Assembly: GCA_963823235.1 (NCBI GenBank)
Contig: CAWGKS010000017.1
Location: 5,050 to 69,049, forward strand
Reading direction: 5' to 3'
DNA from: an uncultured Gammaproteobacteria bacterium
Lineage (GTDB): Bacteria; Pseudomonadota; Gammaproteobacteria; Steroidobacterales; Steroidobacteraceae
Length of the DNA: 64,000 nt
Shown: piece by piece, positions 1 through 26,887 of the stretch
How the letters are laid out: every line of letters starts with the position of its first letter
Position numbering within the stretch: the stretch's first letter is position 1
Program-made: the position numbers and the translations under genes
Notes under the pieces: model-generated
The model's input: the letters and a program-made list of their open reading frames with translations, nothing else
What the model was told of the DNA's origin: nothing
Database searches by the model: none

Positions 1-423
1 AGAGCGCTGAAGTGTTGTGCTTCATTGACGTGTTTTGCGTCCAGACGCAGACCGCCGCGGCATCCTGATTGTCTGTCTTCGCTTGTTCATCCAGCGACGC
101 AGACAGCGCTTCGAGAATGGAATGATCTTTGACGCTTAGTTTGGTTTGGTGATGCGAAAACCAACTGCCCTGCACGAGAGAAAAATTGAGGGCTAATTCA
201 TGAATAAATTGAGAAAAGCTTACCAAGGCCCAAATCCTCCATCATGGCGACGATCGTATCATCCGACCACTCGAGGACACCTGCGGATTTCGCTGAAGAC
301 GATTTCCTCACCAGGTCGCCTATTGGCCAGTATTCCACAAGCAGCCTTTGATTTGACATTGGGCGTTTTCAAATTGCAGTAGTGGTAAAACGCAAAATGG
401 GTTGCGTGGGAGCAGCGTGGCAG

Positions 424-475
424 TGACGTGACCAGTGCCGTGGCGGTGCCGTGGCGCAGTGACGTGGGTGACGTG
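424..475. repeat. three copies of the octamer GTGACGTG (ACGT core) within 52 bp
   Basis: Read directly: GTGACGTG at 424-431, 459-466 and 468-475. Two copies share the longer CAGTGACGTG context. Confidence 0.6.
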
Positions 476-1103
476 GCCAGCGACGTTGCAAAACGACGTG
501 GTGCACTGGCATTTCAACAACCGCGAATTGTCATCTCAACACGCAACTTGATTGTTGGAAAAGCCATGAGCAAACGCGACAAGAGAAGGACAAAGAGAGA
601 AAGGACGAAAAAGACAAGAACGCCGTCACGGATAAAAGCAGCATTGTTGCTGGCGTCGTACGAAGATCGGCCAAGGGGACCAAACGCAAGGCCGAGCTCG
701 AAGGATCACCTCGTAAAGCCAAGTTCAAGAAGGTGCCGAAAAAGTCCTTCGCCGACTGCCAAGACAGTGTGAGCAAGGGTGGCTGGACGAGCATGCCACA
801 CATTCACTTTCATCGGTGAGCCAGCGGAATACACCACGGACATCTGCGTCAAGAAAGGATGCGGACAGGGGCTTGTAAGTTTACTGACGTTTTTTGTTGT
901 TTTGCGCTGCGCTGTTGTGTTTGCTCACTGTTTGCGTTCTTTTGTTGCATTAAATGGGGTCATTTTTGTTTGCAGAAGCGTGAGCGCACTGAAGATGACC
1001 AGGTGAAGTGCTCGGGCGGGCACGCGGCCGACGAGTACGACAGTTCTGCACTTCAAGGGGCGTCAAGGTCCGTGACGACGCTGACGGCAAAAAGCAGGTT
1101 TAG

Positions 1104-1144
1104 TTTTGTTGTTTGGTTTGTTGTTTGTTGTTTGTTGTTGTTGG
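1104..1144. repeat. T/G-rich (TTG/TTTG)n microsatellite-like tract
   Basis: ttttgttgtttggtttgttgtttgttgtttgttgttgttgg read directly. A similar T/G-rich stretch lies at ~880-960. Confidence 0.7.
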
Positions 1145-2302
1145 CGTGTGTATCTGAATGTTGGCACGCAGGAATACGAAATTAACATGCAAGCCAAGAC
1201 CCTCAAGAAGTTTGCGCCTGCTGCGAAAATCGAGGCGTACCTCAAGGCAGAGGAACAAGGAACCGCGACGACCTTTTGGTAAGACCATTTGAACCGTCAA
1301 GTGCTGTGAGTGCATCGAGTTCGTGAAGCACAACCAAAGGAGAAAGTAGCGTTCTCAATCAGCCGCTCTGTCGAGGGCGAGCTGAATAGACGATGTCTTT
1401 GGACGAACTGCGTTCGACAGTGGAACACAGGTTGCTTTGGCGGAAGAAAAAGAGAAACTTTCGAAGCATACGGTTGTTCGAATCACACAAGGCGACAATG
1501 CGAATCGCCAAAGAACAAGATCGTGGAAACGCTGCCGTGCGACGGGATTTGTTTGTGTTTTCAATCCATTCGGGTTTCCGTGTTTTTACAACAAAAACCA
1601 GACATGCATCGATTCTGATGTGGCCATGGTTTGCTAAGTTGAGTGTGCCGGCAGATTGGCTTGGCGACAATTGAACACCAAATCTACGCTGTGAGCACTG
1701 CTTCGTTGATTCGAGCTCGCGAGGAGGCGGCAGTCGTTTGGGCTATCGAGCAACTTTGCCATTCTTGTCTTTGTCCGTCGGTTCAACGGTGAGTGTGCCT
1801 GAATTGCTGCTTGTTGCGGATTCTTATGAAAAAATGTTGCTGCTAGAGCTACCTGTTCACGCAAACGCACAACAACAGTGGGAGATTCCGAGGAGACCGA
1901 TAACCATCGCAAAAAAGCCAGAATCGACGCGTGTTCTACAGGTACTGCAGATTGGTTGAGTTTATGTGTTGCGGCATGAGTGATTTTTGTGTTTCGTTGG
2001 TATGATGGCAACTGTCCGTTGCACGCAGATAAGATGTCCGACACAAGCGAAGAAGTAAAATCGGCTGAATCCAAGCAACACCGAGCGTTACGAAATGGCC
2101 ATCGTTTTGTCGACGCCGTGTGGTGGTGTTATGATCCGCCGAGGCGAATTCGGCTCAGGTGTGCGGACCGAAGAAATTAAATGCAAACGCGGGCAATCTA
2201 TTACTCCTGGCGTTGCTGCCAAGCTCGTCTTGATAGCGAATACAACACGACAGCCTCGCCGGGGATTGCTGGCAAAACTACGGTATCGAGTGGAACAAAG
2301 GT

Positions 2303-2710
2303 TTGGTTGCTATTCCCGAGCGCCCAATCAGGATACTCTGCTTGACCCTGTTTGCCGGTGCAACGAACCATCGAGAACACGGTGAGAAGGTCGACGCTCA
2401 ATACGCACCTGACGACCAGAACACCCGGCTCGGCTTGAAGGCGTTGTGCTCCATTGGACCGGACGAAGACGTTCTGGTTTCATACGGCCGTGAGTTTTCC
2501 AAACTTTTGCGCGATTTGCGTCAAGAACAAGAACACGCCAATGCAGCAGCGGCAATGAAGGAACGGGAACTGCGTGATCTTCAGTGTCGCCTTCAACCAT
2601 TCGAACGGCTCTGCTTTCGTTGCCTGTACGTGTTCCACCGAACGCGTTTTGCGCGTCACCGATTCGAGTGCGCCGCTGCTGCGAAAGGTTGCGCCGCTGA
2701 CGATCGTTGA
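2303..2710 (+). other. SET-domain-like fragment (possible exon or pseudogene)
   Basis: The 135-aa ORF contains ...LFAGATNH... and ...IGPDEDVLVSYGREF..., resembling the SET NH(S/x)C and ELxxxY signature regions. The upstream part appears to lie in another frame (ORF 2095..2385). Motif-level recognition only. Confidence 0.25.
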
Positions 2711-3561
2711 TGTATCTCGTGACCGTTGCAATTGCGCCTGCAATTGATTTCGATATCTGCATGTGAAAAGGGGAAACCTTCAAGGTTTTTGTCCCGATCG
2801 TCAAAGAAACAACATTTTTTGTCTCGTCAAAGAAGCTGTCTCAAAGAAGAAATGCATCGGCCAAAAATTTGAGTTTTTGTCATATTCCTAACCAGGCACA
2901 GCATTTTCTCATCACAGCACTCACGATTTCGAAAACCAATGTCAACGGAAACCTCGACTCAGTTCGTGCATTACTTCGCAATTGTACGCACGGTAAAACT
3001 GTTACTTTAACCATAACGTCCGATTGTGATCTTGCCACACGACGAAAGTTTGATCGCATAAATTTTCTGGTTCCACGCGACCGCAGCTCCGGCGCACCTG
3101 CTGCACAAAATCGTTCGGGAAAGGACAAGCGCAACACGCGGGCAACCTCAACCATGGCATTGTTTCCCATGATAGCAATCATTTACGTCTAATGCTGGCG
3201 AAAAAAGTTTCTGACCTTCTCAAATGCTTTCTTCAATGCTGCTTCACTGCTTCTTCTCACTCACTTCTGCCCACGATGCGAACACGTTGAGCTAGAAGCT
3301 CAACGCACACTGCTGTCATCACACCGTTCACGTCACGAACACGGTTGTTCAAGGGCGATCGTGCTGCTGCCAGATGTGTTGATGAGTGTCGCTGCACACG
3401 CCATGCGTTGGCCAGCCACGCCTCGTCACCTTCGCACTCGCTGACGCGAACACCACGAAACGGGCGTGAAAATGGCAATCGAGCGCAGACACAGTGTTTG
3501 CTTGATGTTGATGTTGTTGCTGATGTTGAACCGCAGCAAAACAACGAGCTGATGCCGCTGA

Positions 3562-5060
3562 GTGTGTTTGCCTCGACCAGTTCATCACCAACGTGGCCAA
3601 AACGACGCGCCGCACTCTATCTCGAGTGACGACGTGTCTGCGTCCGTGCACGACGATTTCGACTTCCGTTCTGACGGTGTGCTCGAGGGCCAATGGCTGC
3701 GGAATGAAGCGCTGCGATCTGTTATCACGAACGGTTTCAGCTGCGGTGTTGATACGCGCCATTTGGGTCATCTGCCGTCAAAGCTTCGCGTTTCCAATTT
3801 CGACGAGCAACAATACATTTCTGCGCTTCTGCGTGATGGTGTCATTTCTCTTGGCCAGTCAATTTTCTCGCATCGGCATTTCTTTTTGCGCAACGGCGGC
3901 AAACTGCGTCTCATCTTTGATGGCAGGCGGTTAAATTCGCGTGTTTCTGAGCCACATGCTTTTCCCATGCTTTCTCATCGTGATTTGGCGCTCGTGCGCG
4001 CGGCGCTCATGGGCAGCCAAGTTTGATTTGGCGAATTTCTATTGGAACATTCGCCTGCACCCATCCATTCGTCATTTGTTCGGTCTTCGTACGTCGGTTG
4101 GCAACTTCGTGTGGAATCGGCTTCCCTTCGGTTTTTCGCACAGCGCTCTGCAGTCTCATCACCTAGCTGAAGCAATTTGTCTGCATTTGCGCACGTTGGG
4201 CATCGATGTTGTTCCACTACATGGATGATTTCATTGTGTTCGCCGACTCGGCCGAGCAGTGCGAGCGTCACCTGTTGCAGTGCATTTCCTTTTGCGAAAG
4301 CATCAATGTGCGTGTCAAGGCGCGCGCAAGACGGTGCATGCAACACAGCGGCCCCACATTCTGGGCGTGCGTTACGATCTGGTCGCCAAGACGTCGTCGC
4401 TCGATCGCAGTTACTTCGACAGGCTGTCTCGCGATCTGGTTTTTCTTGTCTCGGTCCAATTTGTCAAACGCGCTCGTTTTGCATCTTTTTTGGGCGCCGC
4501 TCTATTCTGCAATGCTGCTTATCCTGGTGCGCTAAGTTTTTTCAACGACGTTATTCGCTGTTTCAACTCTACATCGCATTTGCCATGGACGGCTCGTATT
4601 GATGTGGCTGCTGGTGTGCGTTTGGCGTCTGTTGCTCTCGAGCAAGTTTCGTTGTTCCCCCCTTGTGCTCTGCAATCTGAGGGGAGGGAGCGCTCACGTG
4701 TGTTTGCTGACGCTACGCCCACACAGCTTGGAGTGGTCATTGATGGTGTTCTACACGCTCAACCAATCGCAGAGCTGCCCATTTTTGAGGCAGAGGCCAG
4801 CGCACTCGCTCTAGCGCTCGTGCTGGCCAATCGCTCTCCGATCACTCTGGTCACTGACAATCGTGCTCTTTTCTGTGCGGTTCGCAAAGGCCGCTCTGGC
4901 AACCAACTGGCTAACACTGTCATTCGTGACATTCTACTGCGTCGACTTGGAGGAGCTGTGGTTGATGTTGAGTGGATCCCTGTCAAGCTCCAACCCGGCT
5001 GACATTCCTTCGCGAGCGATCTTTGATCATGATAGTCGTGATATTATTTTTCACATTTGA
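3562..5060 (+). pseudogene. retroelement pol remnant (reverse transcriptase + RNase H, LTR/DIRS-like), split over at least 4 frame changes
   Basis: Successive ORFs 3562..4026, 3941..4228, 4206..4535, 4259..5002 and 4863..5060 carry the motifs in order. RT motifs: FFLRNGGKLRLIFDGRRLN; FDLANFYWNIRLHP; NRLPFGFSHS; HYMDDFIVFADS (YxDD box). RNase H-like: VFADATPTQLGVV...FEAEASAL...VTDNRAL. Tail: ...NPADIPSR. Frame changes at ~3990, ~4200, ~4320 and ~4990. Confidence 0.7.
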
Positions 5061-5112
5061 GTGTTTGACGCTTGATTTTAGGGTCTGACTGTATGTGCGT
5101 TGTCTCGACCTT

Positions 5113-5132
5113 CAATACAATACAATACAATA
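5113..5132. repeat. (CAATA)x4 perfect tandem repeat
   Basis: caatacaatacaatacaata read directly, ~50 bp downstream of the end of the pol-like reading frames. Confidence 0.9.
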
Positions 5133-5956
5133 TACGCCGAGCAGGTAACCCGCGATGTAACGATCGTTGAGAATGTCAAGTGTTGTGTGGCCATTCGCGC
5201 AGCGCCGACGTGCTCTCGCATAGCAGCGTGTAGCCCAGATACGCACCCACACACGGCACACCACGGTGCGCCAGACGCGCCCAATGCCCGCGCTGCGAGA
5301 CGCCGCGGCCGACACAGCACGAGTGCCAACAACAAGTCGAACGTGTTGCACCACGTAGACGCCGATGTGAACAGCCGTCGCATGCTGAAATAGTCAACAG
5401 GGAACGTGCTCAACTCCGTCAATTGCACTGGCGCTGCGCCTGCGCGTCGCTGAAGCACGGCACGACCGAAACGGCCTTTGTTTGTTGTCCAGTTTGAGGC
5501 ACGCGCACGGACGCGGAATGACGCAGCGCTGCACGGCCGTCATGAAAACCGCAGTACTCGGGCCCGAATGACGTACACCACGCGGCGACCGTTGACGGCA
5601 AGTACCTGCAGCAGGCGACAGGCGAGACGTGAGCGAAAAAACGAACAGAGCGTGTGCCATGAAGACCAAACAGCCAGAATAGTTATTACCACCACAGTAC
5701 ACCCACAACACGACAAGGCCGCTGCCCAAGCCCGCCCACTCCAGGTGCAGTATTTACCAAAAGCCATGGTTTGAAATTTCAATTGCACTTTTTGCGGCAA
5801 CCAGACCACCGGGCAACAGTTCCCAGATAATTCTAATACCGCGCAGAATGGCCTACCTGGAAAATATGCGATCGTTTCCGAATACGTCGCGGTTATCGAG
5901 CAGATGCTTCTAGGGTCGTCTACGGGGAGGGCACCTGTGAAGTCTGGGCTGGCTGA

Positions 5957-6039
5957 TTAGCAGGAATGCAAATTCGGGCAGTTGGATTAGCAAGATTCTT
6001 GTCGTCACTCTCAATTGTTAGCAAGATTCGTTAGCAAGA
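5957..6039 (+). repeat. four direct copies of TTAGCA(A/G)GA; two share the 12-mer TTAGCAAGATTC
   Basis: Copies at 5957-5965, 5987-5995, 6018-6026 and 6031-6039, all in the same orientation, ~130 bp before the compositional junction. Confidence 0.7.
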
Positions 6040-6088
6040 GTCCCACTCTGACTCGACTAAATGCGAATTTCGACGCAATGCCTGGTTT

Positions 6089-6295
6089 TTGCTTGTTTTT
6101 TGGCGCGCAAGGGAACAACTGTGGTGTGCAATGATTCGACGCGAAGCGCGAGAAAAGGAAAAAAATTACCCTTGCACGGGGCTGGGATTGTCGATTGTGG
6201 CGCGCATCGCCGAGCGCTGTCGTGCCGACATCAGCTATGAACGGCCTGCGAGCGGGCGAGGCCTGCGCGCGCAGGTTCGATTTCCGTTCACCTAG
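6089..6295 (+). pseudogene. 3' fragment of a sensor histidine kinase (HATPase_c G2-box region only)
   Basis: Only the last ~42 aa (from ~6170) look kinase-like: TGLGLSIVARIAERCRADISYERPASGRGLRAQVRFPF*. There are no HisKA/H-box, N-box or G1-box sequences upstream. The preceding sequence changes composition. Confidence 0.6.
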
Positions 6296-6377
6296 TACAC
6301 CGATAACCTTCGCTTAAGCGTAGTGCCGCGATGCTGGCCGGGTTTGGCGTCTGCGGTGCAATAAAGGAGTTCGGAAC

Positions 6378-7409
6378 ATGAAGATTATTCCCATTCTGGC
6401 AACGACCACATGGCTCACGATTTCGGCCGCCGGCGCCGCGGAACCGAACTGGCCGGCACTGCCAACCCGTGCCCCCGAGCCCGCCAGCAATCACTCGACG
6501 CCCGCCAAAGTCGAACTCGGCAAGATGCTGTTCTTCGATCCGCGTTTTTCCGAGACCGGCACGATTTCATGCGCCAGCTGCCACAACGTCATGGAAGGCG
6601 GCGACGATCACCGGCCGGTGTCGATCGGCGTCCATGGTCAGAAGGGCGGTCGCAGTGCCCCGACCGTGTGGAATGCCGCGTTTCTGTCGGCCCAGTTCTG
6701 GGATGGGCGAGCCGCCACCCTCGAAGACCAGGCCAAGGGCCCCGTGGTCAACCCGGTGGAAATGGGCATGAAGGATCTGGGCGCTGCAGTCGACCGCATC
6801 CGCAAGATCGAGGGTTACCGGGTTATTTTCCAGAAGGCGTTCGGTCCCGACGAGGTGGCGACCGCCGACAACGCCGCCAAGGCGATCGCGGCCTACGAAC
6901 GCACGCTGATTACGCCGGGTAGCGCCTATGACCGCTACGTCAACGGCAACAAGAGCGCCCTGACCGCGCAGCAGGCCAAGGGCATGCAGACCTTTGCCGC
7001 CACGGGTTGCGTGGCCTGCCACCAGGGCCCCAATTTCAGTGGCCCGGCGCTGCCCACCGGGACGCCCTTCCTGATGAAATTCCCCACCTTTCCAGCGAGC
7101 CCTGTTGTCGCTACCTACGATCTGGCCAGGGATCAGGGTCGATTCGAATCAACAGGTCTTGAAGCCGATCGGCACATGTGGCGCGTGCCGTCGCTGCGGA
7201 ATCTGGTCTACACGGCGCCTTACATGCACAACGGCTCGGTCAAGTCGCTGCCGGATGCAGTGCGCGTGATGGCCGGTGCCCAGTTGAATCGCACGCTCAG
7301 TGAGGTCGATGTGAGCGACATCGTGGCCTTCCTCGAATCACTCACCGGACCATTCCCTGATCAGATGATGCCTCGTCTGCCACCCACGCCTGGCGATCTT
7401 CTGCAGTGA
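6378..7409 (+). CDS. di-haem cytochrome c peroxidase (CCP/MauG family), exported
   Basis: 343 aa with an N-terminal signal-like segment and two CxxCH motifs (CASCH, CVACH). AAGGAG Shine-Dalgarno upstream of the ATG. Length and motif spacing are typical of bacterial CCP. Confidence 0.85.
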   Translation: MKIIPILATTTWLTISAAGAAEPNWPALPTRAPEPASNHSTPAKVELGKMLFFDPRFSETGTISCASCHNVMEGGDDHRPVSIGVHGQKGGRSAPTVWNAAFLSAQFWDGRAATLEDQAKGPVVNPVEMGMKDLGAAVDRIRKIEGYRVIFQKAFGPDEVATADNAAKAIAAYERTLITPGSAYDRYVNGNKSALTAQQAKGMQTFAATGCVACHQGPNFSGPALPTGTPFLMKFPTFPASPVVATYDLARDQGRFESTGLEADRHMWRVPSLRNLVYTAPYMHNGSVKSLPDAVRVMAGAQLNRTLSEVDVSDIVAFLESLTGPFPDQMMPRLPPTPGDLLQ

Positions 7410-7681
7410 GCGCGCGATCGGCGCCAACCTGTGACACGACTGCGATCGACGCATCACCGGCTGCGTGCGCTCAGTCGCGTCGGCGGACGATCTATCCGGA
7501 TGGATTTCGGCATGAAGTGGCCTGCCTCCTGATCGCCGATCGCAGCCACATCAGGGCGATCTCGGTAACCACCGGCCTGTCCCGCAGTACCCTGCTCCGC
7601 TGGGTACGCGAAGCGGGAGGTATGGCCTGGCAGGCGAAGAGCGGTCACCAGAAAGAATCGCGGTGTTGCGTGCCTTCTTAA
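7406..7681 (+). CDS. small HTH protein resembling IS3-family OrfA (transposase N-terminal HTH), solo fragment
   Basis: RRRTIYPDGFRHEVACLLIADRSHIRAISVTTGLSRSTLLRWVREAG resembles the HTH_Tnp_1 pattern (RRxYSxEFK...LGIxxxTLxxWV). There is no OrfB/DDE part downstream. Confidence 0.3.
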   Translation: MSARSAPTCDTTAIDASPAACAQSRRRTIYPDGFRHEVACLLIADRSHIRAISVTTGLSRSTLLRWVREAGGMAWQAKSGHQKESRCCVPS

Positions 7682-7876
7682 GCTCTACTTACGAATTCGC
7701 CAGACATAACGGGCGTGTTCAAGCGCTACATGAATGGCAGTGGGAGTGCAAAGTGTCCTTCGGCATGAAGTGATTCATCTTTGCGACGGCCCTCACAATT
7801 TTCACTAGCCGGTCACGGTTACGATCAGTGCACGCACCGCCCACAGCTGGAGCGATGCACCCACGGGAGCGCGATT

Positions 7877-8278
7877 ATGAAAGACCCCTACGACTCAGCC
7901 AAAGATCGAACCTCCATACTGGGCCCGACCATTCAGTTCAAAGGTGAGCTGACCGCCAACGAGGATCTGTTGATTCGGGGCCGCGTCGAAGGTTCGATTA
8001 CTCACACACAGCGACTGACCATTGGCAGTGAAGGCAAGGTACACGCCAGTATTGAGGCGTTGATGGTCATAGTCGAAGGCACGGTCGAGGGTGATGTACG
8101 CGCTACCAAGTCCGTAGCGGTGCGCGAGCATGCGCAGCTGACCGGCAATATTTCAGCGCCATCGGTGACCATTCTGGAAGGCGCCAGGTTTACTGGTCAC
8201 GTGGATATGAGCGGTGGCAGCACGGTCAAGGCAGGCGCTACCACCGATGGGACGCGGCGCTCGCTGGGCTCAACTTAA
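7877..8278 (+). CDS. bactofilin (DUF583 polymer-forming cytoskeletal protein)
   Basis: Bactofilin beta-helix pattern: IQFKGELTANEDLLIRGRVEGSITHTQRLTIGSEGKVHASI...VEGTVEGDV...LTGNISAPSVTILEGARFTGHVDM. Start placed at ATG 7877 inside ORF 7781..8278. Confidence 0.8.
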   Translation: MKDPYDSAKDRTSILGPTIQFKGELTANEDLLIRGRVEGSITHTQRLTIGSEGKVHASIEALMVIVEGTVEGDVRATKSVAVREHAQLTGNISAPSVTILEGARFTGHVDMSGGSTVKAGATTDGTRRSLGST

Positions 8279-8301
8279 CTCTCACATTCCGGGTAATCAT
8301 C

Positions 8302-8931
8302 ATGAGTTGGTTTAAAACCGAAAGCTCTGGGGAGAACGCAATGAGCAATTCACTGTTCGAGCCGCGCGCGACCAAGGTGGCCGCTGTAGACACGCCAGCC
8401 GTCGATTTCGACGTGAAAATGCCGCCACGCCCAGCCCTCGCACCGCGGCCGCCCGCCCGGCCAGTACCGCAAACTGAATCTGTGCCACAGCCGAATGCGC
8501 CGGCATCAGTGCTGGGTGCAACGCTACGCTTCAAGGGCGAGCTGCGCGCCGATGAAGATTTCGTCCTGCAGGGCAGGGTGGAGGGCTCGATTCATCACAG
8601 CCAGAATCTGACCATAGGCACGGAGGGCGTCGTCAAGGGGGATTCCCGCGCCGCGACGATCGTTGTCGATGGAACCATTGAGGGTGACCTGTACGCGCTG
8701 GAATTCATCAGCCTGCGGGCCACTGCGCGGGTGCAGGGTAACTTGCTCGCGCCGCGCATCTCAATCGCCGAGGGCGCGACCTTCAACGGCAAAGTAGACA
8801 TGGCCAGCGCCACGCGCGCGGTACGCCACATGAGTGAGCGCCACGCGGGTGGTCAGGCTGAGATGCTGAGTGAAGAAGAGATCCTGATCGGACCAACGCC
8901 GGCGCCGCCGCCACCGCCGGGTGCCACCTGA
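8302..8931 (+). CDS. bactofilin paralogue with Pro-rich N- and C-terminal tails
   Basis: LRFKGELRADEDFVLQGRVEGSIHHSQNLTIGTEGVVKGD...VDGTIEGDL...VQGNLLAPRISIAEGATFNGKVDM, plus Pro/Ala-rich flanks. Confidence 0.8.
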   Translation: MSWFKTESSGENAMSNSLFEPRATKVAAVDTPAVDFDVKMPPRPALAPRPPARPVPQTESVPQPNAPASVLGATLRFKGELRADEDFVLQGRVEGSIHHSQNLTIGTEGVVKGDSRAATIVVDGTIEGDLYALEFISLRATARVQGNLLAPRISIAEGATFNGKVDMASATRAVRHMSERHAGGQAEMLSEEEILIGPTPAPPPPPGAT

Positions 8932-8998
8932 GAGGTCATGCCCGATCGGATATCAGGCGCTGCGTCACCACGCCTGCCCTTGCTCACTGGATTCAGAC

Positions 8999-9538
8999 AT
9001 GACCTCACTGCTGTTGATAAATCTCCCTGACGTAGACCTGCCCGTGCCCGGCGCCGACCCGTGGCATGCGCGCCCGGAGGACCCGGCGATCAGCGTGATG
9101 ACCGATTTTCGCGAGCACGCGTCGGTCACGATTGCGGCAACCACGAATACGGATGCCGCGTTGGAACACATGAAGCACGCCGGCGTTCGCTGCGCATTCG
9201 CTACCAGTGATGCGCGACGCGTTGTGGGCCTGATCACGGCCTACGACATCATGGGCGAGAAGCCGATACGCCATGCGCGGGCCGTGTCGGGTCGGCGCGA
9301 GGATGTGCTGGTGCGCGATATCATGACTACGGTGCGCGATTGGAAAGTCGCCGAGGTCAAACAACTCGAGGTGTCGACGGTTGAGGACTTGCGCCGGAAA
9401 TTCCAGGAACCTGGGCTGACTCATATTCCGGTGGTGGAGTTGAATCAGGAGGGGCGACGCCAGTTACGCGGGTTACTGTCAGGGTCCAAAGTCCGACGAC
9501 TGCTTGCGGGCTTCGACTCGACGAGCACAACAAAATAG
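8999..9538 (+). CDS. CBS-domain pair protein
   Basis: A ~180-aa ORF with CBS-like segments (VMTDF...VTI..., VGLITAYDIMG, VRDIMTT...HIPVVE...LRGLLS). Start set at ATG 8999 within ORF 8921..9538. Confidence 0.6.
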   Translation: MTSLLLINLPDVDLPVPGADPWHARPEDPAISVMTDFREHASVTIAATTNTDAALEHMKHAGVRCAFATSDARRVVGLITAYDIMGEKPIRHARAVSGRREDVLVRDIMTTVRDWKVAEVKQLEVSTVEDLRRKFQEPGLTHIPVVELNQEGRRQLRGLLSGSKVRRLLAGFDSTSTTK

Positions 9539-9605
9539 ACGCTGACTTGGTTCAACGGCCTGGCCAGGCTGCTCGACGGAGTGTGGCGCCGGGTAGGGCG
9601 GGACG

Positions 9606-10541
9606 TTGGACCTGGCATGGCCGTGTGTGAAGCCAATGCATAAACACACAACTCGAGCGCAGCCGATGCCGTGTTTCGATTCGCAGGCGGACTCGCTTGA
9701 GGTTTCAGAGCGCGATGTGCTGCGTCTGCTGGGAACGGGTTGCTCACTGACAAGCGTCAGCAGGCACCTGGCGCTGTCTGAGAGCACCGTGCAGGCCTAC
9801 GTGCGTGAAATTAAGCGAAAACTACGCTTGAACTCGCTCGATGCGTTACGTGACCACGCAGTGCTACTCCATGACTTCATGGGAGCTGGCGCGGACGCAT
9901 TGGCGACCGCCCGTCCGCAGCACCTTCCGCACCAGAGTCGCTGGCTGCCAGATGTGAAGTTAAGTGCAGGCGGTCCGCTGGGTAGCGCCTGTCGACGCGA
10001 GCTCAATTGCAGGTCGCTGCGCGACGCCGCGGATTTTCTGAGGGATTGTCCGTCACCGTCCGGCGCAGCGCCGGACGATCCGGGCGCGGTTATTCGGCAT
10101 CGCACCGGGACACTGGCCGCCAAACAGGCACTGCTGGTGGCGTTGGCCCTGGAGGCCGGACGCGAAGATGTGCAGTTGATTGTGGCTTGCTATGAGTTGC
10201 GTGTAGTGGACGACAGTACGCATACCCGACCTGCCACCCTGCCCATGGCCGTGTGTCATATCCGCTATCGATCACATGACCTCCAGATCGCTGAGCCCTG
10301 TGCGGGCTCGCTGCTCTGCAGTCGGCCGATGTCTACGGTATGCGTAGACCCTGGGCGACTGGCGAGCGAACGGGTGAGGATGTATCAGACGATGGCTATC
10401 GATTGGTGTCGTGCACTCGATCTGAAGCCGAACTACTTTGCCCGGTTGCGCGCTGAGCAGTTGCGTCAAACCGAGCGCCGCGCCGTTTTTGAGGATCTCC
10501 TGGGACACCAGTTGCCCCGGAACTACACGCCTGTTTCCTGA
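9606..10541 (+). CDS. LuxR/GerE-type HTH regulator with N-terminal HTH and ~230-aa unrecognised C-terminal domain
   Basis: SERDVLRLLGTGCSLTSVSRHLALSESTVQAYVREIKRKLRLNS is a classical GerE/LuxR HTH. I do not recognise the remainder. Alternative start at ATG 9636. Confidence 0.6.
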   Translation: MDLAWPCVKPMHKHTTRAQPMPCFDSQADSLEVSERDVLRLLGTGCSLTSVSRHLALSESTVQAYVREIKRKLRLNSLDALRDHAVLLHDFMGAGADALATARPQHLPHQSRWLPDVKLSAGGPLGSACRRELNCRSLRDAADFLRDCPSPSGAAPDDPGAVIRHRTGTLAAKQALLVALALEAGREDVQLIVACYELRVVDDSTHTRPATLPMAVCHIRYRSHDLQIAEPCAGSLLCSRPMSTVCVDPGRLASERVRMYQTMAIDWCRALDLKPNYFARLRAEQLRQTERRAVFEDLLGHQLPRNYTPVS

Positions 10542-10589
10542 TCCGGTGGCCAGGGGTTTGGAACCTCGACCGCAACGCTCCCGGCGCGA

Positions 10590-12761
10590 TCAGCGAGCCA
10601 GCCTGAAGACAAACAGCACCGGATTGCCAGCCGGCGTGTCGATCTCGGGCGTCAGCGTCGCCCGGGTCGCTTCGAGCGCGCTCCCGCCGCCTGTTACCAC
10701 CGCCACGTACTGCTCACCGTTGACGCTGTAGGTGATGGGGAACGAGGCTGGCGCTGCGTTGAGGCGTGTTTCCCAAAGTATGGCGCCAGTCTGGTCGTCA
10801 TAGGCGCGAAACTGCCGATCATGATTGCCATTGAAGAGCAGGCCTCCGGCAGTGGCAAGTATTGCGCTGGAGGGAACCGCACGCTCACGATCGGTCCACA
10901 GCACCCTGCCAGTCTGCAGGTTGATGGCCTGGAGACGTCCGAACTTGCCATCGCCATCGGGACGCACGCGTTGCTCCATGCGCGTGTCCACGCCGCCCGC
11001 AGCGGTGTCCGCAGCAGTGCCCGGCGTGAACGTGTAGTTCATGCACGATTCCGTGAGCGGCGCATAGAGCACTCCGGTCTCCGGATTGATGGAGGTTGCC
11101 GGCCAGTTGCGTCCTGAGGTGGCGTAGGGACAGACCAATTTGGCAACGCCCGCTTCGGGCTGGACGGCGGGATTGATGATCTTCCAGCCCGTGGCGGGAT
11201 CGATATCCTGCACCACGTTCTGCAGACCCAGATCCCTGGAGAACACATATTCGCCCGTTGCCCGGTCGATGGCGTCAAACATCGCCAGCTTGCCGCCAGT
11301 GACGACGAGCTTGCGCGTACGGCCCGCGATGGGCAGTTCGAGCAGTGATTGTTCGAAGGCCCAGTCCAGATCCCAGACATCGCGGCCCATATGCTGGTAG
11401 TACCACGCAAGCTTGCCCGTGTCCGCGTCCAGCGCGAGCGTCGAGTCGGTATACAGGCCGAGATTCTCTGGCCGCTCCTGCGGATCGGGCTGCAGCAGGG
11501 TGGCGGTGGCGTAGGTGTTGCCGGTTCCGAAGTAGACCAGGTTGAGATCGGGGTCGTAGCTGCCTGGAGTCCACACGCCAGCGCCGTAGCGTTCCTCCAC
11601 GGGGTGAGCATTCCAGCTGCCGCCACCGGGCTGGCCGGGTCGCGCAATCGTGTTGAAGCGCCACGCCTCATTGCCGGTCTGCGCGTCGAGCGCGATGATA
11701 TAGGCGCCCCCCTTGCCATGCGTTACACCGAGTGACACACCCAGGATGATCTTGCCGCGGGCGGCCAGCGGGCCACTGTCGAGCCGGAATGGCGAGCCAT
11801 CGGCATCGCCACTGCGCGCACCCTGCTCAGGTGCAATGACCGCACGATCCCAGATGAGCTTGCCGGTCCTGGCTTCCAGCGCTACGACATGCCCATCGGC
11901 GGTCGGCGCGTAGATGCGCTCTCCGAGGATCGCAAGACTCTTGGCGCGCGCGCTGCGCCCGCCGTCCGCCTCATCCGGCAGCAGCCGCTGGTATTGCCAC
12001 AGCAGTTCACCGCTGGCGGCGTCCAGGGCTTCGACGGCGGCGCCACTCGCAATGAACATGACGCCATCGTGCACCAGCGGCGTGATTTCATTCACGCTGG
12101 GCGGCAGCGACCAGCTCCAGGCACTGCCCAGTCCGTGCACATTGTCCTTGTTGATCTGCCTGAGGGGACTGAAGCCGAGTGCCTCGTAGGTGCGCCGCCA
12201 ATGCAGCCAGTCGCCCGCCGGCGGATTGCGCAGCAGCTGCTCACTGACCACGGATACACGGCCCAGCATTTCAGTGCGCGCGGCAACCGTGGAGGTATAG
12301 ATGGCATCGCGCTCAATGGCGGCGGAGAACAGTCGGGCATTGCGCTCTGCTTCTTCGGCGGATGCGCCCGCCACCGCGACCTTGCTTTTCGCCGCTTCCG
12401 TCCAGCCGTCGTTGGACTGCCGGATGTAGCTCTCGATTTCCGTGTAGGTCTGTGTAGTCAGCGAGCCTGGACCGGCGGGCGGCATCCTGGTCGCGATGTA
12501 TTGCAGCAGCGCCGCGCTTGTCTGGTTCTGCCAATGGGCATCGAATTTTTCGCCCTTGAGTGGTGGCCCGAATTCGCCGCCCTCCAGGTTCGCGCCGTGG
12601 CACTGCAGACAGCTGTGCGTGTAGGCAGCTGGCACCGCAGCGCGTGCGCTGCCCGGCTGCGGGCTGGCGCAGCCGGCTAGCAGGGCTGCCGCTATCGCCG
12701 CGCCTCTCAATACCAATGACTTCACGGCACACGACGCCCGTTCACGACCATGCATGCTCAC
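10590..12761 (-). CDS. PQQ-dependent dehydrogenase (8-bladed propeller) with N-terminal c-type cytochrome domain; lipoprotein-like signal
   Basis: N-terminus ...AALLAGCASP (lipobox-like), then CLQCH haem motif with a downstream RMPP Met. After that come PQQ-dehydrogenase signatures (GDWLHWRRTYEALGFSPLRQINKDNV, repeated W-containing propeller blades). 723 aa. Confidence 0.8.
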   Translation of the reverse strand: MSMHGRERASCAVKSLVLRGAAIAAALLAGCASPQPGSARAAVPAAYTHSCLQCHGANLEGGEFGPPLKGEKFDAHWQNQTSAALLQYIATRMPPAGPGSLTTQTYTEIESYIRQSNDGWTEAAKSKVAVAGASAEEAERNARLFSAAIERDAIYTSTVAARTEMLGRVSVVSEQLLRNPPAGDWLHWRRTYEALGFSPLRQINKDNVHGLGSAWSWSLPPSVNEITPLVHDGVMFIASGAAVEALDAASGELLWQYQRLLPDEADGGRSARAKSLAILGERIYAPTADGHVVALEARTGKLIWDRAVIAPEQGARSGDADGSPFRLDSGPLAARGKIILGVSLGVTHGKGGAYIIALDAQTGNEAWRFNTIARPGQPGGGSWNAHPVEERYGAGVWTPGSYDPDLNLVYFGTGNTYATATLLQPDPQERPENLGLYTDSTLALDADTGKLAWYYQHMGRDVWDLDWAFEQSLLELPIAGRTRKLVVTGGKLAMFDAIDRATGEYVFSRDLGLQNVVQDIDPATGWKIINPAVQPEAGVAKLVCPYATSGRNWPATSINPETGVLYAPLTESCMNYTFTPGTAADTAAGGVDTRMEQRVRPDGDGKFGRLQAINLQTGRVLWTDRERAVPSSAILATAGGLLFNGNHDRQFRAYDDQTGAILWETRLNAAPASFPITYSVNGEQYVAVVTGGGSALEATRATLTPEIDTPAGNPVLFVFRLAR

Positions 12762-13597
12762 TTGCCGGCTCGCGCCAGGCGGTCGCTCTCAGCGCGCGTC
12801 GATGCGGGTCCGGTGTTGCGGCTCGCAAGTCCGCCGCCGGCCGGAGCCTTGCTGAAGGGCTCCGGATCACCCGGCCGCAGCTTCAGGCCGTAGAGGCTGT
12901 GCATGCCCGGGTGGCGGCCGAGGCCGCCATGCAGGTCGAAGCCGCGATCAAGCCAGTCGCGCAGCGGGTCATCGTCGGTCAGGGGCGGCGTGGTCGCGAC
13001 AGAAGCCACCCACAGAAACAGGGAAAGCGCGCGATAGTCCGCGTAGTTCGGGTTGGCGCCGCCGAGCCAGCGGTCTTCCGCCAGCAGCTGGCGCAAAGGT
13101 TCGAGGGTTGGTGGCACCAGGGGCAGGCGCTCTTCGCGGCCCTCCTGCGCAGCCTCGAGACTGCGGCCACCGAGAAAGGCCTTGCGACTGTGCGTCACGT
13201 ATTCGTGGTCCTGCAGCATCGACAGGTCACGGTAATCCTTGATGTAGCAGCTGAACCACGGCGTCACCGCCGTGCGCCACAACCAGGCTTCGAGGAACTT
13301 CGTCAGCACCTTGACGCCCGGATCGCCGCACAGCATCGGCCGTTCAGGGTAAGTCTCGTCCAGGTATTCGGCGATCAGCCAGCTGTCGAGCACCCAGTGC
13401 CCGTCATCGACAATCGCCGGGAGGCGTTCGCTGCGGCCACCGGTGCGCTCGAGTATGCCGGTGAAGCCGCCCGGCACGATGTCGAGGTCGAAGCCCTTGT
13501 GCTTGAGGGCGTACTTCGTGGCCCAGACAAAGGGGCTGATGGTGCAGCCGGAAGCGAGCTGCAGGTCATACAGTGTGATGCGATTGTTTACTGCCAT
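12758..13597 (-). CDS. glutathione S-transferase-like / Grx2-like protein
   Basis: 279 aa with a thioredoxin-fold N-terminus: ITLYDLQLASGCTISPFVWATKYALKHKGFDLDIVP...LPAIVDDGHWVLDSWLIAEYLDETYP. Its stop overlaps the GTG start of the PQQ dehydrogenase (GTGA). Confidence 0.65.
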   Translation of the reverse strand: MAVNNRITLYDLQLASGCTISPFVWATKYALKHKGFDLDIVPGGFTGILERTGGRSERLPAIVDDGHWVLDSWLIAEYLDETYPERPMLCGDPGVKVLTKFLEAWLWRTAVTPWFSCYIKDYRDLSMLQDHEYVTHSRKAFLGGRSLEAAQEGREERLPLVPPTLEPLRQLLAEDRWLGGANPNYADYRALSLFLWVASVATTPPLTDDDPLRDWLDRGFDLHGGLGRHPGMHSLYGLKLRPGDPEPFSKAPAGGGLASRNTGPASTRAESDRLARAGK

Positions 13598-13630
13598 GGG
13601 TATAGGCGCGCCATTCTACAGCCAGGCGCA

Positions 13631-14785
13631 TCAGTTCGCCGGCTCAAGCCGCAGCACACGCCCGTCCGATTCGTCAGTGCAGACGTAGAGATAGCCATCT
13701 GGCGCGGCGCGCACATCACGAATGCGCCAATGCCGATCACCCAGCAGTTCTTCCTGGTCCACTACCTCGCCGTGGGCGTCGAGATGAACCCGCCGCAGGT
13801 GCGTGAAAGCCAGCGACCCTGTAAACAGATCGCCCCGCCACGCTGGAAACCTGTCGCCGTGGTACACCGCGAGACCTGAGGGCGCGATCGAAGGAGTCCA
13901 GTAGATCAGCGGCTGCTCGAGGCCCGGGCGCTGGGTATACGGCGACACGTAGGCGCCGGAGTAGTCCATGCCGTAGGTGATCACCGGCCAACCGTAGTTG
14001 CTGTGAGCGGTGATGACATTCAACTCGTCACCGCCGCGTGGGCCGTGCTCGGTTTCGTAGAGGCGTCCGCTTGGCGCATCAAACGCCAGGCCCTGCGGGT
14101 TGCGGTGACCCCAGCTGTAGATCTCGGGGCGGACCGAGGCCCGGCCGAGAAACGGATTGTCGCGCGGCACGCTGCCATCCCCATTGAGGCGCACGATCTT
14201 GCCCAGGTCAGAGCTCAGATCCTGCGCCTTTTCACGGTACTCGAAGCCCTCGCCAATCGTCAGTGCAAAGGTGCCGTCAGGAAGGAACGCCATGCGCGCG
14301 CCATAGTGGTTGTCGCCGGCCTTCAATGGCAGTGCCCGGAATATCACCTGCAAATCCTGGAGCGAAGTGCCGTCGAAGCGGGCACGCGCTACCTGCGTGC
14401 CGTTGGCGGCATGGGTCCCCGCGGCATAGGTCAGATAGACAATTCCGTTCAGCGCAAAATCGGGATGCAGCACAATGTCGAACAGACCCGCCTGACTGCC
14501 GGTGAGCACCGCCGGGACGCCGGCAATCGGTCGCGGAACCAACGAGCCCTCTTTGATCAGGCGCAGTCTTCCTGCGCGCTCGGTCACCAGAATTGCGCCG
14601 TCTGGCAGGAACGCCATTGACCAGGGGTGATCGAGTCCGCGTGCGATTTCTGTGACGCGATAGCCCGTCTTGAGCACTTTGGCAGTTTGCGGTGCGGGCG
14701 GCAGGGCACTTGCGGAGCCGGCCGCCAGCGTGACAGCCAGCACGGGTAGGAAGCGGCGCATCATTATTATTCCAGCTAAAACCAA
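13631..14785 (-). CDS. soluble PQQ-dependent sugar (aldose/sorbosone) dehydrogenase, YliI-like
   Basis: Signal peptide, then ...GLDHPWSMAFLPDGAILVTERAGRLRLI...HYGARMAFLPDG...WGHRNPQGLAF...EHGPRGGDELN..., typical of the GSDH family. The true start is probably an internal Met (MMRRF...). Confidence 0.8.
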   Translation of the reverse strand: MVLAGIIMMRRFLPVLAVTLAAGSASALPPAPQTAKVLKTGYRVTEIARGLDHPWSMAFLPDGAILVTERAGRLRLIKEGSLVPRPIAGVPAVLTGSQAGLFDIVLHPDFALNGIVYLTYAAGTHAANGTQVARARFDGTSLQDLQVIFRALPLKAGDNHYGARMAFLPDGTFALTIGEGFEYREKAQDLSSDLGKIVRLNGDGSVPRDNPFLGRASVRPEIYSWGHRNPQGLAFDAPSGRLYETEHGPRGGDELNVITAHSNYGWPVITYGMDYSGAYVSPYTQRPGLEQPLIYWTPSIAPSGLAVYHGDRFPAWRGDLFTGSLAFTHLRRVHLDAHGEVVDQEELLGDRHWRIRDVRAAPDGYLYVCTDESDGRVLRLEPAN

Positions 14786-15282
14786 TGGGCTGCAGGATAA
14801 TTGAGAATCTGCCAGTGGGGAGAGAACAATTGCTGCGCCGGATCAGTGCATTTGCGATGGCTGCGCTTGTCATGATTACTCTGGGTACGGCCGCGCAGGC
14901 ATATTGGGTACAGGACGCCTGGTCCGCGGCCGCGGGCCTGGCCACGGGGGGCGGTCCGGTCGCCATTCCCCTGGGCGATCGACTGACCTGGGCGGCGCAC
15001 GATCTTGGCGGCCTGCTCGACTCTTACGGCGCCCTCAGCACGATTGCCTTGCTGATCGCGCTGCTGATCGCAGGCGCGGTGGCACGATTCAGCGGCCATC
15101 GTCGGCTTGTCTTTGGCATCGCCGGGGCGTCGGCAATCCTCGCACTGTTGACCGGGCTCAAGCTGGCACTCGGCACAGTGGGAGTATTCGGCGCGCGCGG
15201 TTGGGCGGGTCACGCTTGCCAGGCAGTGGTCGGTCTACTGGCAGCCCTGCTGTTTGCGCGCCTTACGGCAGTGAAAAAATAG
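14785..15282 (+). CDS. hypothetical integral membrane protein
   Basis: 165-aa ORF with 3-4 hydrophobic segments and no recognisable motif. The start may be an internal Met at ~14857. Confidence 0.35.
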   Translation: MGCRIIENLPVGREQLLRRISAFAMAALVMITLGTAAQAYWVQDAWSAAAGLATGGGPVAIPLGDRLTWAAHDLGGLLDSYGALSTIALLIALLIAGAVARFSGHRRLVFGIAGASAILALLTGLKLALGTVGVFGARGWAGHACQAVVGLLAALLFARLTAVKK

Positions 15283-15400
15283 CGGCCTCCGGGACTCTAT
15301 CCCCCAGGACGGCGCGCGCGGATTGCCGCTTTGTCCGAGGGGCGCCAGATTTTGCGCACAACCATAGCGTGAGGGCGCATGAAATGGCTACGCTGTCTGT

Positions 15401-17836: not shown

Positions 17837-18009
17837 GTCTCCATCGCACGCAGGCTCGCGCGAATCAGCGGCAGCAGCATGGTCCCTAACCCGGAATGGG
17901 CCATGACCGCCTCCGGCATCCCCTCGTAGCGCCGAACGTGAGCGAGCACCGCTTCATCCGGCCCCGCCGAAGCCGGCGGATGAGGGCCAGGGTCGTTGTG
18001 GCGCTGCAC
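17614..18009 (-). CDS. PKS fragment 8: thioesterase C-terminal half (catalytic Asp/His region)
   Basis: ...PILAICGDADSTVSREEMEGWRVHTCESFQLAIVPGGHFFIHQ... Confidence 0.75.
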   Translation of the reverse strand: MQRHNDPGPHPPASAGPDEAVLAHVRRYEGMPEAVMAHSGLGTMLLPLIRASLRAMETYVAPPLQPLPIPILAICGDADSTVSREEMEGWRVHTCESFQLAIVPGGHFFIHQARSQVLDLVRSQLQRVMTF

Positions 18010-18923
18010 TCGCAGCGACGATCAGCGCGGCCGGCGGGCGCTGGCGATCTCCGGCAATGAATCGTGTCGCCTCGAACGCCACGAGCGCGCCCATGCTGTA
18101 TCCCATCAGCGCATAGGGTCCGGTCACTTCGGTGGCGATCGCCGAGGCGATGCCGCCAGCGATGGCCCGAATCGAGGTCAGTGGAACCTCCACCAGGCCT
18201 GAGCCGGTCCCCGGAAACTGAATGGTCAGGATGTTGGCGATGCAGCGGAGCCCCTCCGACCAACCCTGAAAGGTCTGCGGCCCACCGCCGAGGTATGGCA
18301 CGCAGATCAGCTGCAGCCCGGCGCCCGACTCGCCGTCGCCGCCAGTCAGCCATCCCGTCCGCGGTGCAGACCCGGCTATCGGGGACGTGCACCCCGGTAG
18401 TGGCACGATCAGCCCCATCGAAGCGGTTTTGAATCTCGGCCGCGAGCTGGATGATCGTGGGACCCTGGATGAGGGTGACGATGGGCAGATTGATCCCGAC
18501 TCCCGCCTCCACTCGGTGCATCAACTCAAGGGCCATCAGTGAGTCGAGACCCACGGTGTTGAGCGGCTGGTCCAGCGGCAGCGCCTCGGGATCGATCTCC
18601 AGCACCTTGGCCAGCTCGGCCGCAATAAAGGACGTGATGAGTCCCAGGCGTTCCTCTGGCGTGGCAGCCAGGAGTTTTTCGCGTAGCGCGGCCGCGGCGG
18701 AATCCGGTTGAACTTCCAGCACCACCGTCTGGCGAATGATCGCCAGAAAGGGATCCGTTCGCGCGGTCGGCCAGACGCGCCATGAACGTCCCCCAGTCCA
18801 TGGGCATGACGGCGACCTCGGGGACGTCCAGTTCGGACACGGTGCCCAGCGCCTCGACGCCGCGGGCCGGCGGAATCTTGCCCACCCCGAAATCGAAGCT
18901 CCGCTGTCCCTGCGCGGTGGCAC
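17886..18923 (-). CDS. PKS fragment 6: second ACP domain (only the middle part of the ORF is in the true frame)
   Basis: ...LREKLLAATPEERLGLITSFIAAELAKVLEIDPEALPLDQPLNTVGLDSLMALELMHRVEAGVGINLPIVTLIQGPTIIQLAAEI... Confidence 0.75.
   Translation of the reverse strand: MPPRRDSGASISGWARFRRPAASRRWAPCPNWTSPRSPSCPWTGGRSWRVWPTARTDPFLAIIRQTVVLEVQPDSAAAALREKLLAATPEERLGLITSFIAAELAKVLEIDPEALPLDQPLNTVGLDSLMALELMHRVEAGVGINLPIVTLIQGPTIIQLAAEIQNRFDGADRATTGVHVPDSRVCTADGMADWRRRRVGRRAAADLRAIPRRWAADLSGLVGGAPLHRQHPDHSVSGDRLRPGGGSTDLDSGHRWRHRLGDRHRSDRTLCADGIQHGRARGVRGDTIHCRRSPAPAGRADRRCECSATTTLALIRRLRRGRMKRCSLTFGATRGCRRRSWPIPG
17954..18418 (-). CDS. PKS fragment 7: thioesterase N-terminal half (GxSxG)
   Basis: ...LQLICVPYLGGGPQTFQGW...TIQFPGTGSG...YALMGYSMGALVAFEATRF... 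Confidence 0.75.
   Translation of the reverse strand: MGLIVPLPGCTSPIAGSAPRTGWLTGGDGESGAGLQLICVPYLGGGPQTFQGWSEGLRCIANILTIQFPGTGSGLVEVPLTSIRAIAGGIASAIATEVTGPYALMGYSMGALVAFEATRFIAGDRQRPPAALIVAASAAPQRPWPSSAGFGGAG

Positions 18924-20298: not shown

Positions 20299-26887
<6,589 letters not shown>

Follow-up and report, generated by a model that had tools for sequence, protein, structure and literature searches.

Does the join near position 6176 of this DNA exist in any genome? The window, which is the whole stretch of 64,000 nt analysed here, is part of a parent contig of 69,565 nt that is deposited in NCBI and ENA. An earlier note on the sequence had described an abrupt switch from eukaryote-like to bacterial DNA at a truncated sensor kinase gene, and had left three explanations open: a chimeric assembly, a bacterial insertion in a eukaryotic genome, and eukaryotic DNA acquired by a bacterium. 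We compared the two sides of the join in composition, gene content, consensus quality and occurrence in public data. The features are collected in Table 1.

Table 1. Features of the window on both sides of the join
Feature	Position	Strand	Remarks
Eukaryote-derived, transposon-rich segment	1-6175		Assigned by composition, ORFs, homologues, Helitron context and absence of a plasmid match
Gene A (MSNQRLL...)	3-359	-	54-nt intron GTAAGC...TGCAG at about 170-223; at least 3 frame breaks
Gene B (MSKRDK..., K/R/E-rich, then CHTFTFIGEPAEY...)	566-1066	+	Homologues about 80% identical; 2 frame breaks in exon 1
SET/PR-domain-like fragment, distant	2270-2710	+	27% identical to P0026
Compact RT-RNase H retroelement copy	3613-5132	+	99.5% identical to Logan contig L083; RVT_1 E 7e-20
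ORF like metagenomic P0018	5179-5428	-	98-100% identical; one frame break at about 5269
Repeat	5571-5897		About 99% identity, depth about 2 in soil/sediment runs X17, X18 and X21
TTAGCA(A/G)GA, 4 or 5 copies	5955-6042	+
Join	6149-6176		Preceded by an A-rich stretch; kinase homology from 6176
Sensor histidine kinase tail (TGLGLSIV..., G2 box onward)	6176-6295	+	Last 39 codons and stop
Gammaproteobacterial chromosome	6296-64000		Assigned by gene content
Di-haem cytochrome c peroxidase, intact	6378-7409	+	CCP_MauG E 2e-59
Type I PKS (FAAL-ACP-KS-AT-DH-ER-KR-ACP)	17886-26887	-	5 overlapping ORFs via frame breaks
IS4-family transposase ORF	62630-63967	-	Takes the place of the last ~25 sucB codons

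Composition and gene content on either side of the join

GC content is 0.517 for positions 1-6175 and 0.638 for positions 6176-64000, and the three 2-kb intervals of the left part fall short of the bacterial mean (0.639, SD 0.022) by 4.6-6.4 SD. The left side is therefore lower in GC, as the earlier note had it, but its figure of 65-70% for the remainder was slightly high, since the bacterial side ranges from 0.59 to 0.67. Long ORFs, counted from stop to stop with a minimum of 200 codons, cover 12% of the left part, where the longest has 247 aa, and 92% of the right part, in agreement with the described scarcity of long ORFs before the junction and the dense, operon-organised sequence after it. 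Moreover, the tetranucleotide likelihood ratio changes sign between 6001-6200 and 6201-6400, so that the signature, whose comparison across the junction had been proposed as a check, is not continuous at 6.0-6.4 kb. Composition and gene architecture both switch at a single point near 6176, and the abrupt change from eukaryote-like to bacterial sequence is borne out by all three measures.

The right side is an ordinary Steroidobacteraceae-like gammaproteobacterial chromosome. Directly downstream of the kinase tail lies a cytochrome c peroxidase gene, whose product shares 82% identity with its nearest relatives from metagenomes and 74% with its counterpart in a Steroidobacteraceae MAG. Further along are genes for bactofilins, a PQQ dehydrogenase, MMPL, a type I PKS, a penicillin amidase, a TonB-dependent receptor, an ABC transporter, Hyf/complex-I-like modules, RND efflux, FliM, and sucA and sucB. 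The window also ends, on its right, in bacterial and IS4 sequence.

The left side contains two genes with introns. In gene A, a stretch of which is 84% identical to JGI contig L087, the intron falls where three homologues (P0021-P0023) run straight from MMED(L/M)GLG into SWFSHH and where a fourth (P0020) has a different, 16-codon insert. Its splice is 1 nt out of frame in the present sequence, which is probably due to one more indel. The intron of gene B (101 nt, GTAAGT...TTTGCAG, 875-975) is spliced in frame, and a soil contig carries both of its exon flanks, with 43 nt versus 87 within the intron. Thus, the GT-AG introns of both genes sit at positions where homologues have no insert or another one, which marks them as spliceosomal introns. 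The Lys/Arg/Glu-rich reading frame that had been noticed in this region lies at 566-790 and belongs to a real gene, gene B, with metagenomic homologues (P0016, P0017 and P0019) that are about 80% identical; elsewhere, a homologue of gene B adjoins a Helitron Rep/helicase ORF of 1811 aa.

The simple repeats reported for the left side are likewise real: (TTTGTTG)n at 1105-1143 and (CAATA)4 at 5113-5132. The ORF that starts at 1187 falls within a stretch that is collinear with a JGI contig, and in the repeat at 5571-5897 one contig diverges beyond 5810. The proposed SET-like fragment fared less well: its homologue P0026 gives sub-threshold SET and PRDM2_PR matches (E about 0.004), but the fragment itself has no Pfam match even at E<=1. 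A Pfam scan of the three-frame translations of 1-3560 found nothing at E<=0.01 and no bacterial domain, a comparison of the left part with 72,556 plasmids gave no match, and Rfam and tRNA scans found nothing. It is well founded that the left side is eukaryotic, given its GT-AG introns, its Helitron-linked genes and a reverse transcriptase (RT) of the LTR-retroelement/pararetrovirus class, and the label eukaryote-like was apt. The two sides, with these features on the left and gammaproteobacterial operons on the right, come from different organisms.

A compact RT-RNase H element in the left segment

The RT belongs to a retroelement copy that lacks the first ~685 nt of its unit, is broken in frame at about 3990, 4214, 4320 and 4981, and is directly followed by the (CAATA)4 repeat; its read-through protein is P0001. 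The RT domain matches Pfam RVT_1 and has a YMDD motif, and the nearest solved RTs are those of CaMV, gammaretroviruses (MLV/XMRV) and Ty3. We rejected a retron, a group II intron or another bacterial RT as its identity. The earlier note had called the element an LTR/DIRS-type RT-RNase H pol. The RT itself is confirmed, but the hallmarks of both classes are absent: we found no LTR, inverted repeat, integrase, protease or tyrosine recombinase for the element. No direct repeats of at least 25 nt flank it, which does not fit an LTR retrotransposon, and the absence of inverted repeats from the window, together with units of ~2.2 kb that consist of ORF1 and RT-RNase H only, does not fit a DIRS element.

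The family shares with LTR retroelements and pararetroviruses (Ty3, gammaretroviruses, caulimoviruses) an RVT_1 domain with YMDD and a C-terminal RNase H that ends in NPAD.PSR. It differs from them in its small unit, made up of ORF1 (~175 aa) and RT-RNase H (~500 aa), and in its lack of protease, integrase, tyrosine recombinase and LTRs; RVT_1 and a weak RNase H-like C-terminus were all that its members showed. Unlike these elements, the copies are truncated at the 5' end, with A-runs before it, and have 5-nt tandem repeats after the 3' end. The family also matches the C-terminal domain of the hepadnaviral polymerase weakly, below the threshold (E 0.0017), and hepadnavirus-like retroelements (HEART; PMC12241316) are a lead only. 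All 14 relatives are metagenomic, and the RT family was not found in IMG/VR. One of the soil contigs is closed on itself; tandem copies, circles or split repeats could each give this pattern.

The join and the truncated kinase gene

The kinase was described as cut at the junction to its last ~42 codons. It is indeed truncated there, but the tail comprises 39 codons and the stop, out of ~460 codons. It matches positions 66-109 of 111 in the HATPase_c profile and positions 313-355 of 362 in a PmrB-type kinase. Like PmrB/QseC-type kinases, the remnant holds the C-terminal part of HATPase_c, from the G2 box (GLGL) to the stop; unlike them, it is without sensor, HAMP, HisKA (H-box) and most of the ATPase domain. 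With neither HisKA/H-box nor a complete HATPase_c it does not qualify as a sensor histidine kinase and, judged by its domain content, it cannot work as a kinase. There is no kinase-like sequence left of 6176, and both the 5' part of the kinase and a response regulator are absent from the whole window. We searched for a complete kinase that ends in the same 40 residues and found none.

In two other loci, L001, from the Steroidobacteraceae MAG, and L013, genes for a regulator, a full kinase and the peroxidase follow each other, and the remnant shares 57% identity with the corresponding tail in L013 and 41% with that in L001. L001 is the closest among species-representative genomes, whereas metagenomic relatives of the peroxidase reach 82%. 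These closest relatives have no kinase upstream, and the native left neighbour of the bacterium is therefore not directly demonstrable. In the bacterium itself, the remainder of the kinase gene, and probably also the gene for the response regulator, would lie to the left of 6176.

At the join itself we found no direct or inverted repeat, duplication, tRNA or IS end, and an IS-mediated junction at 6176 was rejected. A search for remnants of sequencing adapters gave scores at chance level.

Separate occurrence, consensus quality and the origin of the join

Four runs of one study (X13-X16) each contain 6-9% of the sampled words of positions 6300-16000, in contigs of 151-282 nt that are 99-100% identical to the bacterial side. 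None of the four contains any of positions 1-6175, apart from simple-repeat matches; at equal depth, about ten contigs would be expected from the four runs pooled. Conversely, pieces about 99% identical to the left side are found in X3, X17, X18, X21 and the run behind L083, none of which has a near-identical bacterial piece. This reverse test is weak, since these runs may carry merely related copies of multi-copy transposons. The two sides thus differ in occurrence across samples, all of them other than the source, and a junction private to a strain or cell line would pass this test. The join was not found in any run or contig searched: neither the join pattern nor a conserved 28-mer of the left side matched JGI metagenome contigs, no contig of X13-X16 compared with 5900-6700 lies near the join, and runs that match 5650-6650 reach only 5571-5897 or conserved peroxidase motifs, so that 5898-6175 is covered by none. 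No Nanopore runs with 3001-13000 are listed.

The consensus quality also changes at the join. On the left, where about 2.7 kb of coding sequence could be assessed, we count at least 10 frame breaks, or about 1 per 270 nt. On the right there are about 10-12 in 58 kb, or about 1 per 5 kb, in the genes for the PKS, the TonB-dependent receptor and an ABC ATPase, and ORFs of 700-1200 aa are unbroken. Frame-breaking indels are thus about 18 times denser on the left. In comparisons with the near-identical, Illumina-derived copies L083 and P0018, there are 5 indels on the left side but only 2-3 substitutions over about 1.7 kb, or over about 2.1 kb if an indel-free stretch of 366 nt in P0015 is added; such a predominance of indels is the signature of read error rather than of divergence. 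The contrast is quantitative, not absolute, since dead transposon copies also gain real indels and the bacterial side has frame breaks of its own. In the PKS gene, the KS_C profile is broken between positions 75 and 76, GC3 shifts its phase along the gene, and the extra bases of the window at 19632 and 20666 are absent from Illumina-derived contigs. The many small indels suggest that a long-read metagenome assembly was the source. By the proxies of consensus quality and separate occurrence, the two sides do not show the equal depth and quality of a single molecule.

A real junction is improbable overall. One form of it, to which we give somewhat less credence still, is that a piece of bacterial chromosome of at least 58 kb was inserted very recently into the transposon-rich nuclear DNA of a soil eukaryote. 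A broader version, in which the chromosome of a free living-type soil gammaproteobacterium either integrated in this way or was fused with the eukaryotic DNA in vivo, for example in a phagotroph, is no more probable. Large Wolbachia inserts occur in insect and nematode genomes, and they too place tens of kb of bacterial chromosome beside repeat-rich DNA of the host and cut a bacterial gene at an arbitrary point. True nuclear DNA on the left, a cut in a bacterial gene such as illegitimate integration would give, and some frame breaks on the bacterial side would all suit an insertion. However, the apparent donor is a free-living soil gammaproteobacterium rather than a germ-line endosymbiont, no second junction is seen within the window, and four runs that are without the left side contain the bacterial side at 99-100% identity. 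Moreover, one population of molecules should show equal consensus quality, not a gap of about 18-fold, and at two of the bacterial frame breaks the extra base is missing from Illumina-derived contigs, with differences that cluster locally in the manner of consensus errors.

Very unlikely is the converse, in which the bacterium took up eukaryotic DNA that disrupted its kinase gene. The interrupted kinase and the normal continuation of the bacterial side agree with it, but bacterial DNA does not resume anywhere in 1-6175, and neither the 5' part of the kinase gene nor the regulator gene reappears in the window, beyond which the parent contig extends by at most 5.6 kb. The same bacterial population is present in four runs without the segment, which is non-functional, intron-bearing and transposon-rich and has no mobile-element boundary, and whose poor consensus argues for a read depth below that of the chromosome. 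Almost no weight is left for the view that the left part is a decayed genomic island of low GC that belongs to this bacterial lineage. Such islands also have lower GC and broken ORFs, and an IS4 element lies at the other end of the window, but this reading is already contradicted by GT-AG introns at homologue-defined positions, by left-side genes that elsewhere neighbour a Helitron Rep/helicase, by the class of the RT, and by the plasmid and Pfam searches, which gave no match to 72,556 plasmids and no bacterial domain in three frames of 1-3560.

Among the three explanations left open by the earlier note, we therefore favour a chimeric assembly, because the two sides occur apart in public runs, their quality differs by more than an order of magnitude and no biological boundary separates them. 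The probability that the join at about 6176 is a sequencing or assembly artefact, present in no genome, is in our estimate roughly 0.86. Like other contigs that combine two organisms, in metagenome or contaminated genome assemblies, this one changes abruptly in composition, architecture and taxon at one point, with a gene cut there, has sides that occur independently in other samples, and joins a poorly polished tail to a well-polished body. The contig of a well-covered, Steroidobacteraceae-like soil gammaproteobacterium would have ended within the sensor kinase gene, and one or a few long reads, chimeric or wrongly overlapped, would then have extended it; the remaining half of these reads would be transposon-rich nuclear DNA of a soil eukaryote. 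The asymmetry in indels fits such a poorly covered long-read tail on a well-covered contig.

If the join is chimeric, eukaryotic transposon DNA makes up at least 6 kb of the deposited 69.6-kb 'bacterial' contig, which also has many indel errors, with the risk of false claims of transfer between domains, false 'bacterial' RTs and wrong numbers of pseudogenes. A real join would mean that a very large piece of DNA had passed very recently between a soil eukaryote and a free-living bacterium, which would be a rare event. Finally, the compact RT-RNase H element of ~2.2 kb, which we encountered only in metagenomes, may merit a separate study.

Composition switch and truncated kinase at position 6176

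The earlier note had described an abrupt switch in the kind of DNA near the left end of the window, and this switch is real and sharp. GC content is 0.517 for positions 1-6175 versus 0.638 for 6176-64000, with the three left-side 2-kb windows lying 4.6 to 6.4 SD under the bacterial mean, and ORFs of at least 200 codons, counted from stop to stop, cover 12% of the left side compared to 92% of the right side. The tetranucleotide comparison across the join, which that note had proposed, yields a likelihood ratio that changes sign between 6001-6200 and 6201-6400. The simple repeats are found at the positions reported before; the call of a SET-like fragment on the same side is weak. The motif TTAGCA(A/G)GA occurs four or five times at 5955-6042, at intervals of 13-31 nt and 130-220 nt upstream of the join.

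That a sensor kinase gene is cut at the join was also confirmed. Translated from 6176, the sequence is TGLGLSIVARIAE...FPFT, followed by a stop codon at 6293-6295; it corresponds to the 39 C-terminal codons of a sensor kinase (positions 66-109 of 111 in the HATPase_c profile and 313-355 of 362 in a PmrB-type profile). Matches to kinases on public contigs start exactly at 6176; these contigs have kinase sequence upstream of this point as well, whereas the window has none. Neither the rest of the kinase nor its regulator was found anywhere in the window. In a Steroidobacteraceae MAG (L001) and in a further locus (L013), the gene order is response regulator, full kinase (~455-459 aa) and peroxidase, and the window appears to retain just the end of this arrangement. 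The kinase-peroxidase adjacency is not general, since it occurs in 2 of 69 loci and is absent in the 82% relatives of the peroxidase.

The bacterial side

The right side is an ordinary gammaproteobacterial chromosome. It encodes a di-haem cytochrome c peroxidase, two bactofilins, a CBS protein, a LuxR-type regulator, a PQQ dehydrogenase, a GST, a glucose/sorbosone dehydrogenase, an MMPL protein, a type I PKS with its own phosphopantetheinyl transferase, a penicillin amidase, a TonB-dependent receptor, an ABC transporter, Hyf/complex-I-like modules, RND efflux components, FliM, carbonic anhydrase, sucA and sucB. Among species-representative genomes, the peroxidase shows 74% identity to a homologue from a Steroidobacteraceae MAG, and its closest relatives in a large protein collection reach at most 82%. 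The cluster at 40742-47905, which comprises two antiporter-like Proton_antipo_M proteins, a NuoH-like protein, a 20-kDa subunit and a fused 30-kDa/49-kDa one, resembles a relative of complex I of the hydrogenase-4/formate-hydrogenlyase or Mrp type. Close to the right end, an ORF for an IS4-family transposase (62630-63967, minus strand) begins at the point from which the last ~25 codons of sucB (61451-62650) are missing, and GC falls to 0.587. Either an IS element has really inserted into the 3' end of sucB, or the assembly has a second fault here.

Coordinates of features on both sides of the join
Feature	Position	Strand	Remarks
Gene A (MSNQRLL...)	359-3	minus	54-nt insert GTAAGC...TGCAG at ~170-223
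Gene B (MSKRDK...)	566-1066	plus	intron 875-975, 101 nt, GTAAGT...TTTGCAG
RT-RNase H retroelement	3613-5132		RVT_1 domain
Type I PKS	17886-26887	minus	FAAL-ACP-KS-AT-DH-ER-KR-ACP; single gene, five overlapping ORFs
Phosphopantetheinyl transferase of the PKS	27021-27845		
TonB-dependent receptor	31960-34251		frame-broken; Plug and beta-barrel pieces over three ORFs
ABC ATPase	39626-40661		frame-broken; ABC_tran profile 2-51 and 62-136 over two ORFs

Transposon-rich eukaryotic DNA on the left side

The left side is eukaryotic nuclear DNA and rich in transposons. The JGI contig L087 is collinear with it over positions 3-359 (84% identity) and 566-1390 (74%). These stretches hold Genes A and B, which are small and divergently oriented; other collinear metagenome contigs are L088 and an 8,890-nt JGI contig. 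A longer contig has homologues of the two genes beside an 1811-aa ORF for a Helitron Rep/PIF1-helicase. Since a related 734-nt contig reaches a depth of 36 in two soil runs, a multi-copy Helitron probably carries Genes A and B as cargo or has them as neighbours. Splicing of the Gene B intron keeps the frame. A soil contig of depth 36 retains both exon flanks and the splice-site motifs at ~90% identity, and within the intron it has 43 nt where the window has 87. The site of the insert in Gene A is without it in three metagenomic homologues (P0021-P0023) and carries a different insert in a fourth (P0020).

For the RT-RNase H element, the nearest solved reverse transcriptases are those of CaMV, MLV/XMRV and Ty3. 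Its family consists of 14 proteins, all from metagenomes, and forms compact units of ~2.2 kb (loci L081-L086) with an ORF1 of ~175 aa and an RT-RNase H of ~500 aa, which are fused in one member (P0001). The copies differ in their 3' flanks and in the extent of 5' truncation, with A-runs 5' of the element and 5-nt tandem repeats 3' of it; one soil contig closes on itself at ~2164 nt. A search for an LTR, an integrase, a protease or a recombinase in the element found none. The family C-terminus shows a weak, sub-threshold match to the C-terminal domain of hepadnaviral polymerase.

Finally, 5571-5897 recurs at ~99% identity and a depth of ~2 in runs on soil, wetland and freshwater sediment that belong to separate studies. 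Because one of these contigs diverges after 5810 and another is without 46 nt, the stretch is probably one more dispersed repeat, from a soil eukaryote with a wide distribution.

Origin of the join

The earlier note had left open whether the assembly is chimeric, whether bacterial DNA was inserted into a eukaryotic genome or whether the bacterium acquired foreign DNA. The contig from which the window is taken has a length of 69,565 nt and is deposited in NCBI and ENA, which leaves up to 5.6 kb outside the window. Public sequencing data bear on the separate occurrence of the two sides. Four runs of one study (X13-X16) each contain 6-9% of the sampled bacterial-side words, in contigs of 99-100% identity. 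At equal depth ~10 left-side contigs would be expected in these runs together, but except for simple-repeat matches there were none. Conversely, runs with ~99% identical left-side pieces contain no near-identical bacterial pieces, as compared up to position 9000. Neither the join nor the 280 nt upstream of it has a match in the public runs and contigs searched, and no Nanopore runs matching positions 3001-13000 were listed.

The two sides also differ in consensus quality. The window's RT differs from the Illumina-derived contig L083 by two substitutions and four small indels in 1473 nt, a left-side ORF differs from its homologue P0018 by no more than one residue besides a single frame break, and Genes A and B have at least five further breaks relative to their homologues. 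This amounts to ~1 break per 270 nt, with more indels than substitutions, a pattern typical of long-read error rather than of divergence. The bacterial side has ~10-12 breaks in 58 kb, which split the PKS into five ORFs, the TonB-dependent receptor into three and the ABC ATPase into two; it also contains intact genes of 700-1200 codons. The window's extra bases at 19632 and 20666 are absent from Illumina-derived contigs of other samples, and the differences are tightly clustered; these two breaks in the PKS are therefore consensus or assembly errors rather than signs of a pseudogene. The contrast between the sides is explained if a tail of low depth and poor polishing was attached to a contig with better coverage, but would not arise from a single population of molecules. 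A bacterial insert truly present in a eukaryotic genome, which would be such a population, is thus unlikely.

At the join itself we found no repeat, duplication, tRNA, IS end or adapter: it lacks a biological boundary. That the bacterium acquired eukaryotic DNA is less probable still, and that the left part is a bacterial island is very improbable. The left side contains no plasmid match, no RNA gene and, in three frames of 1-3560, no bacterial Pfam domain. Separate occurrence, the unmatched join, consensus quality and the missing boundary, four lines that are all indirect, agree with each other. We consider it likely, with a probability of about 0.86, that the join is the end of a chimeric contig from an error-prone, probably long-read, metagenome assembly.
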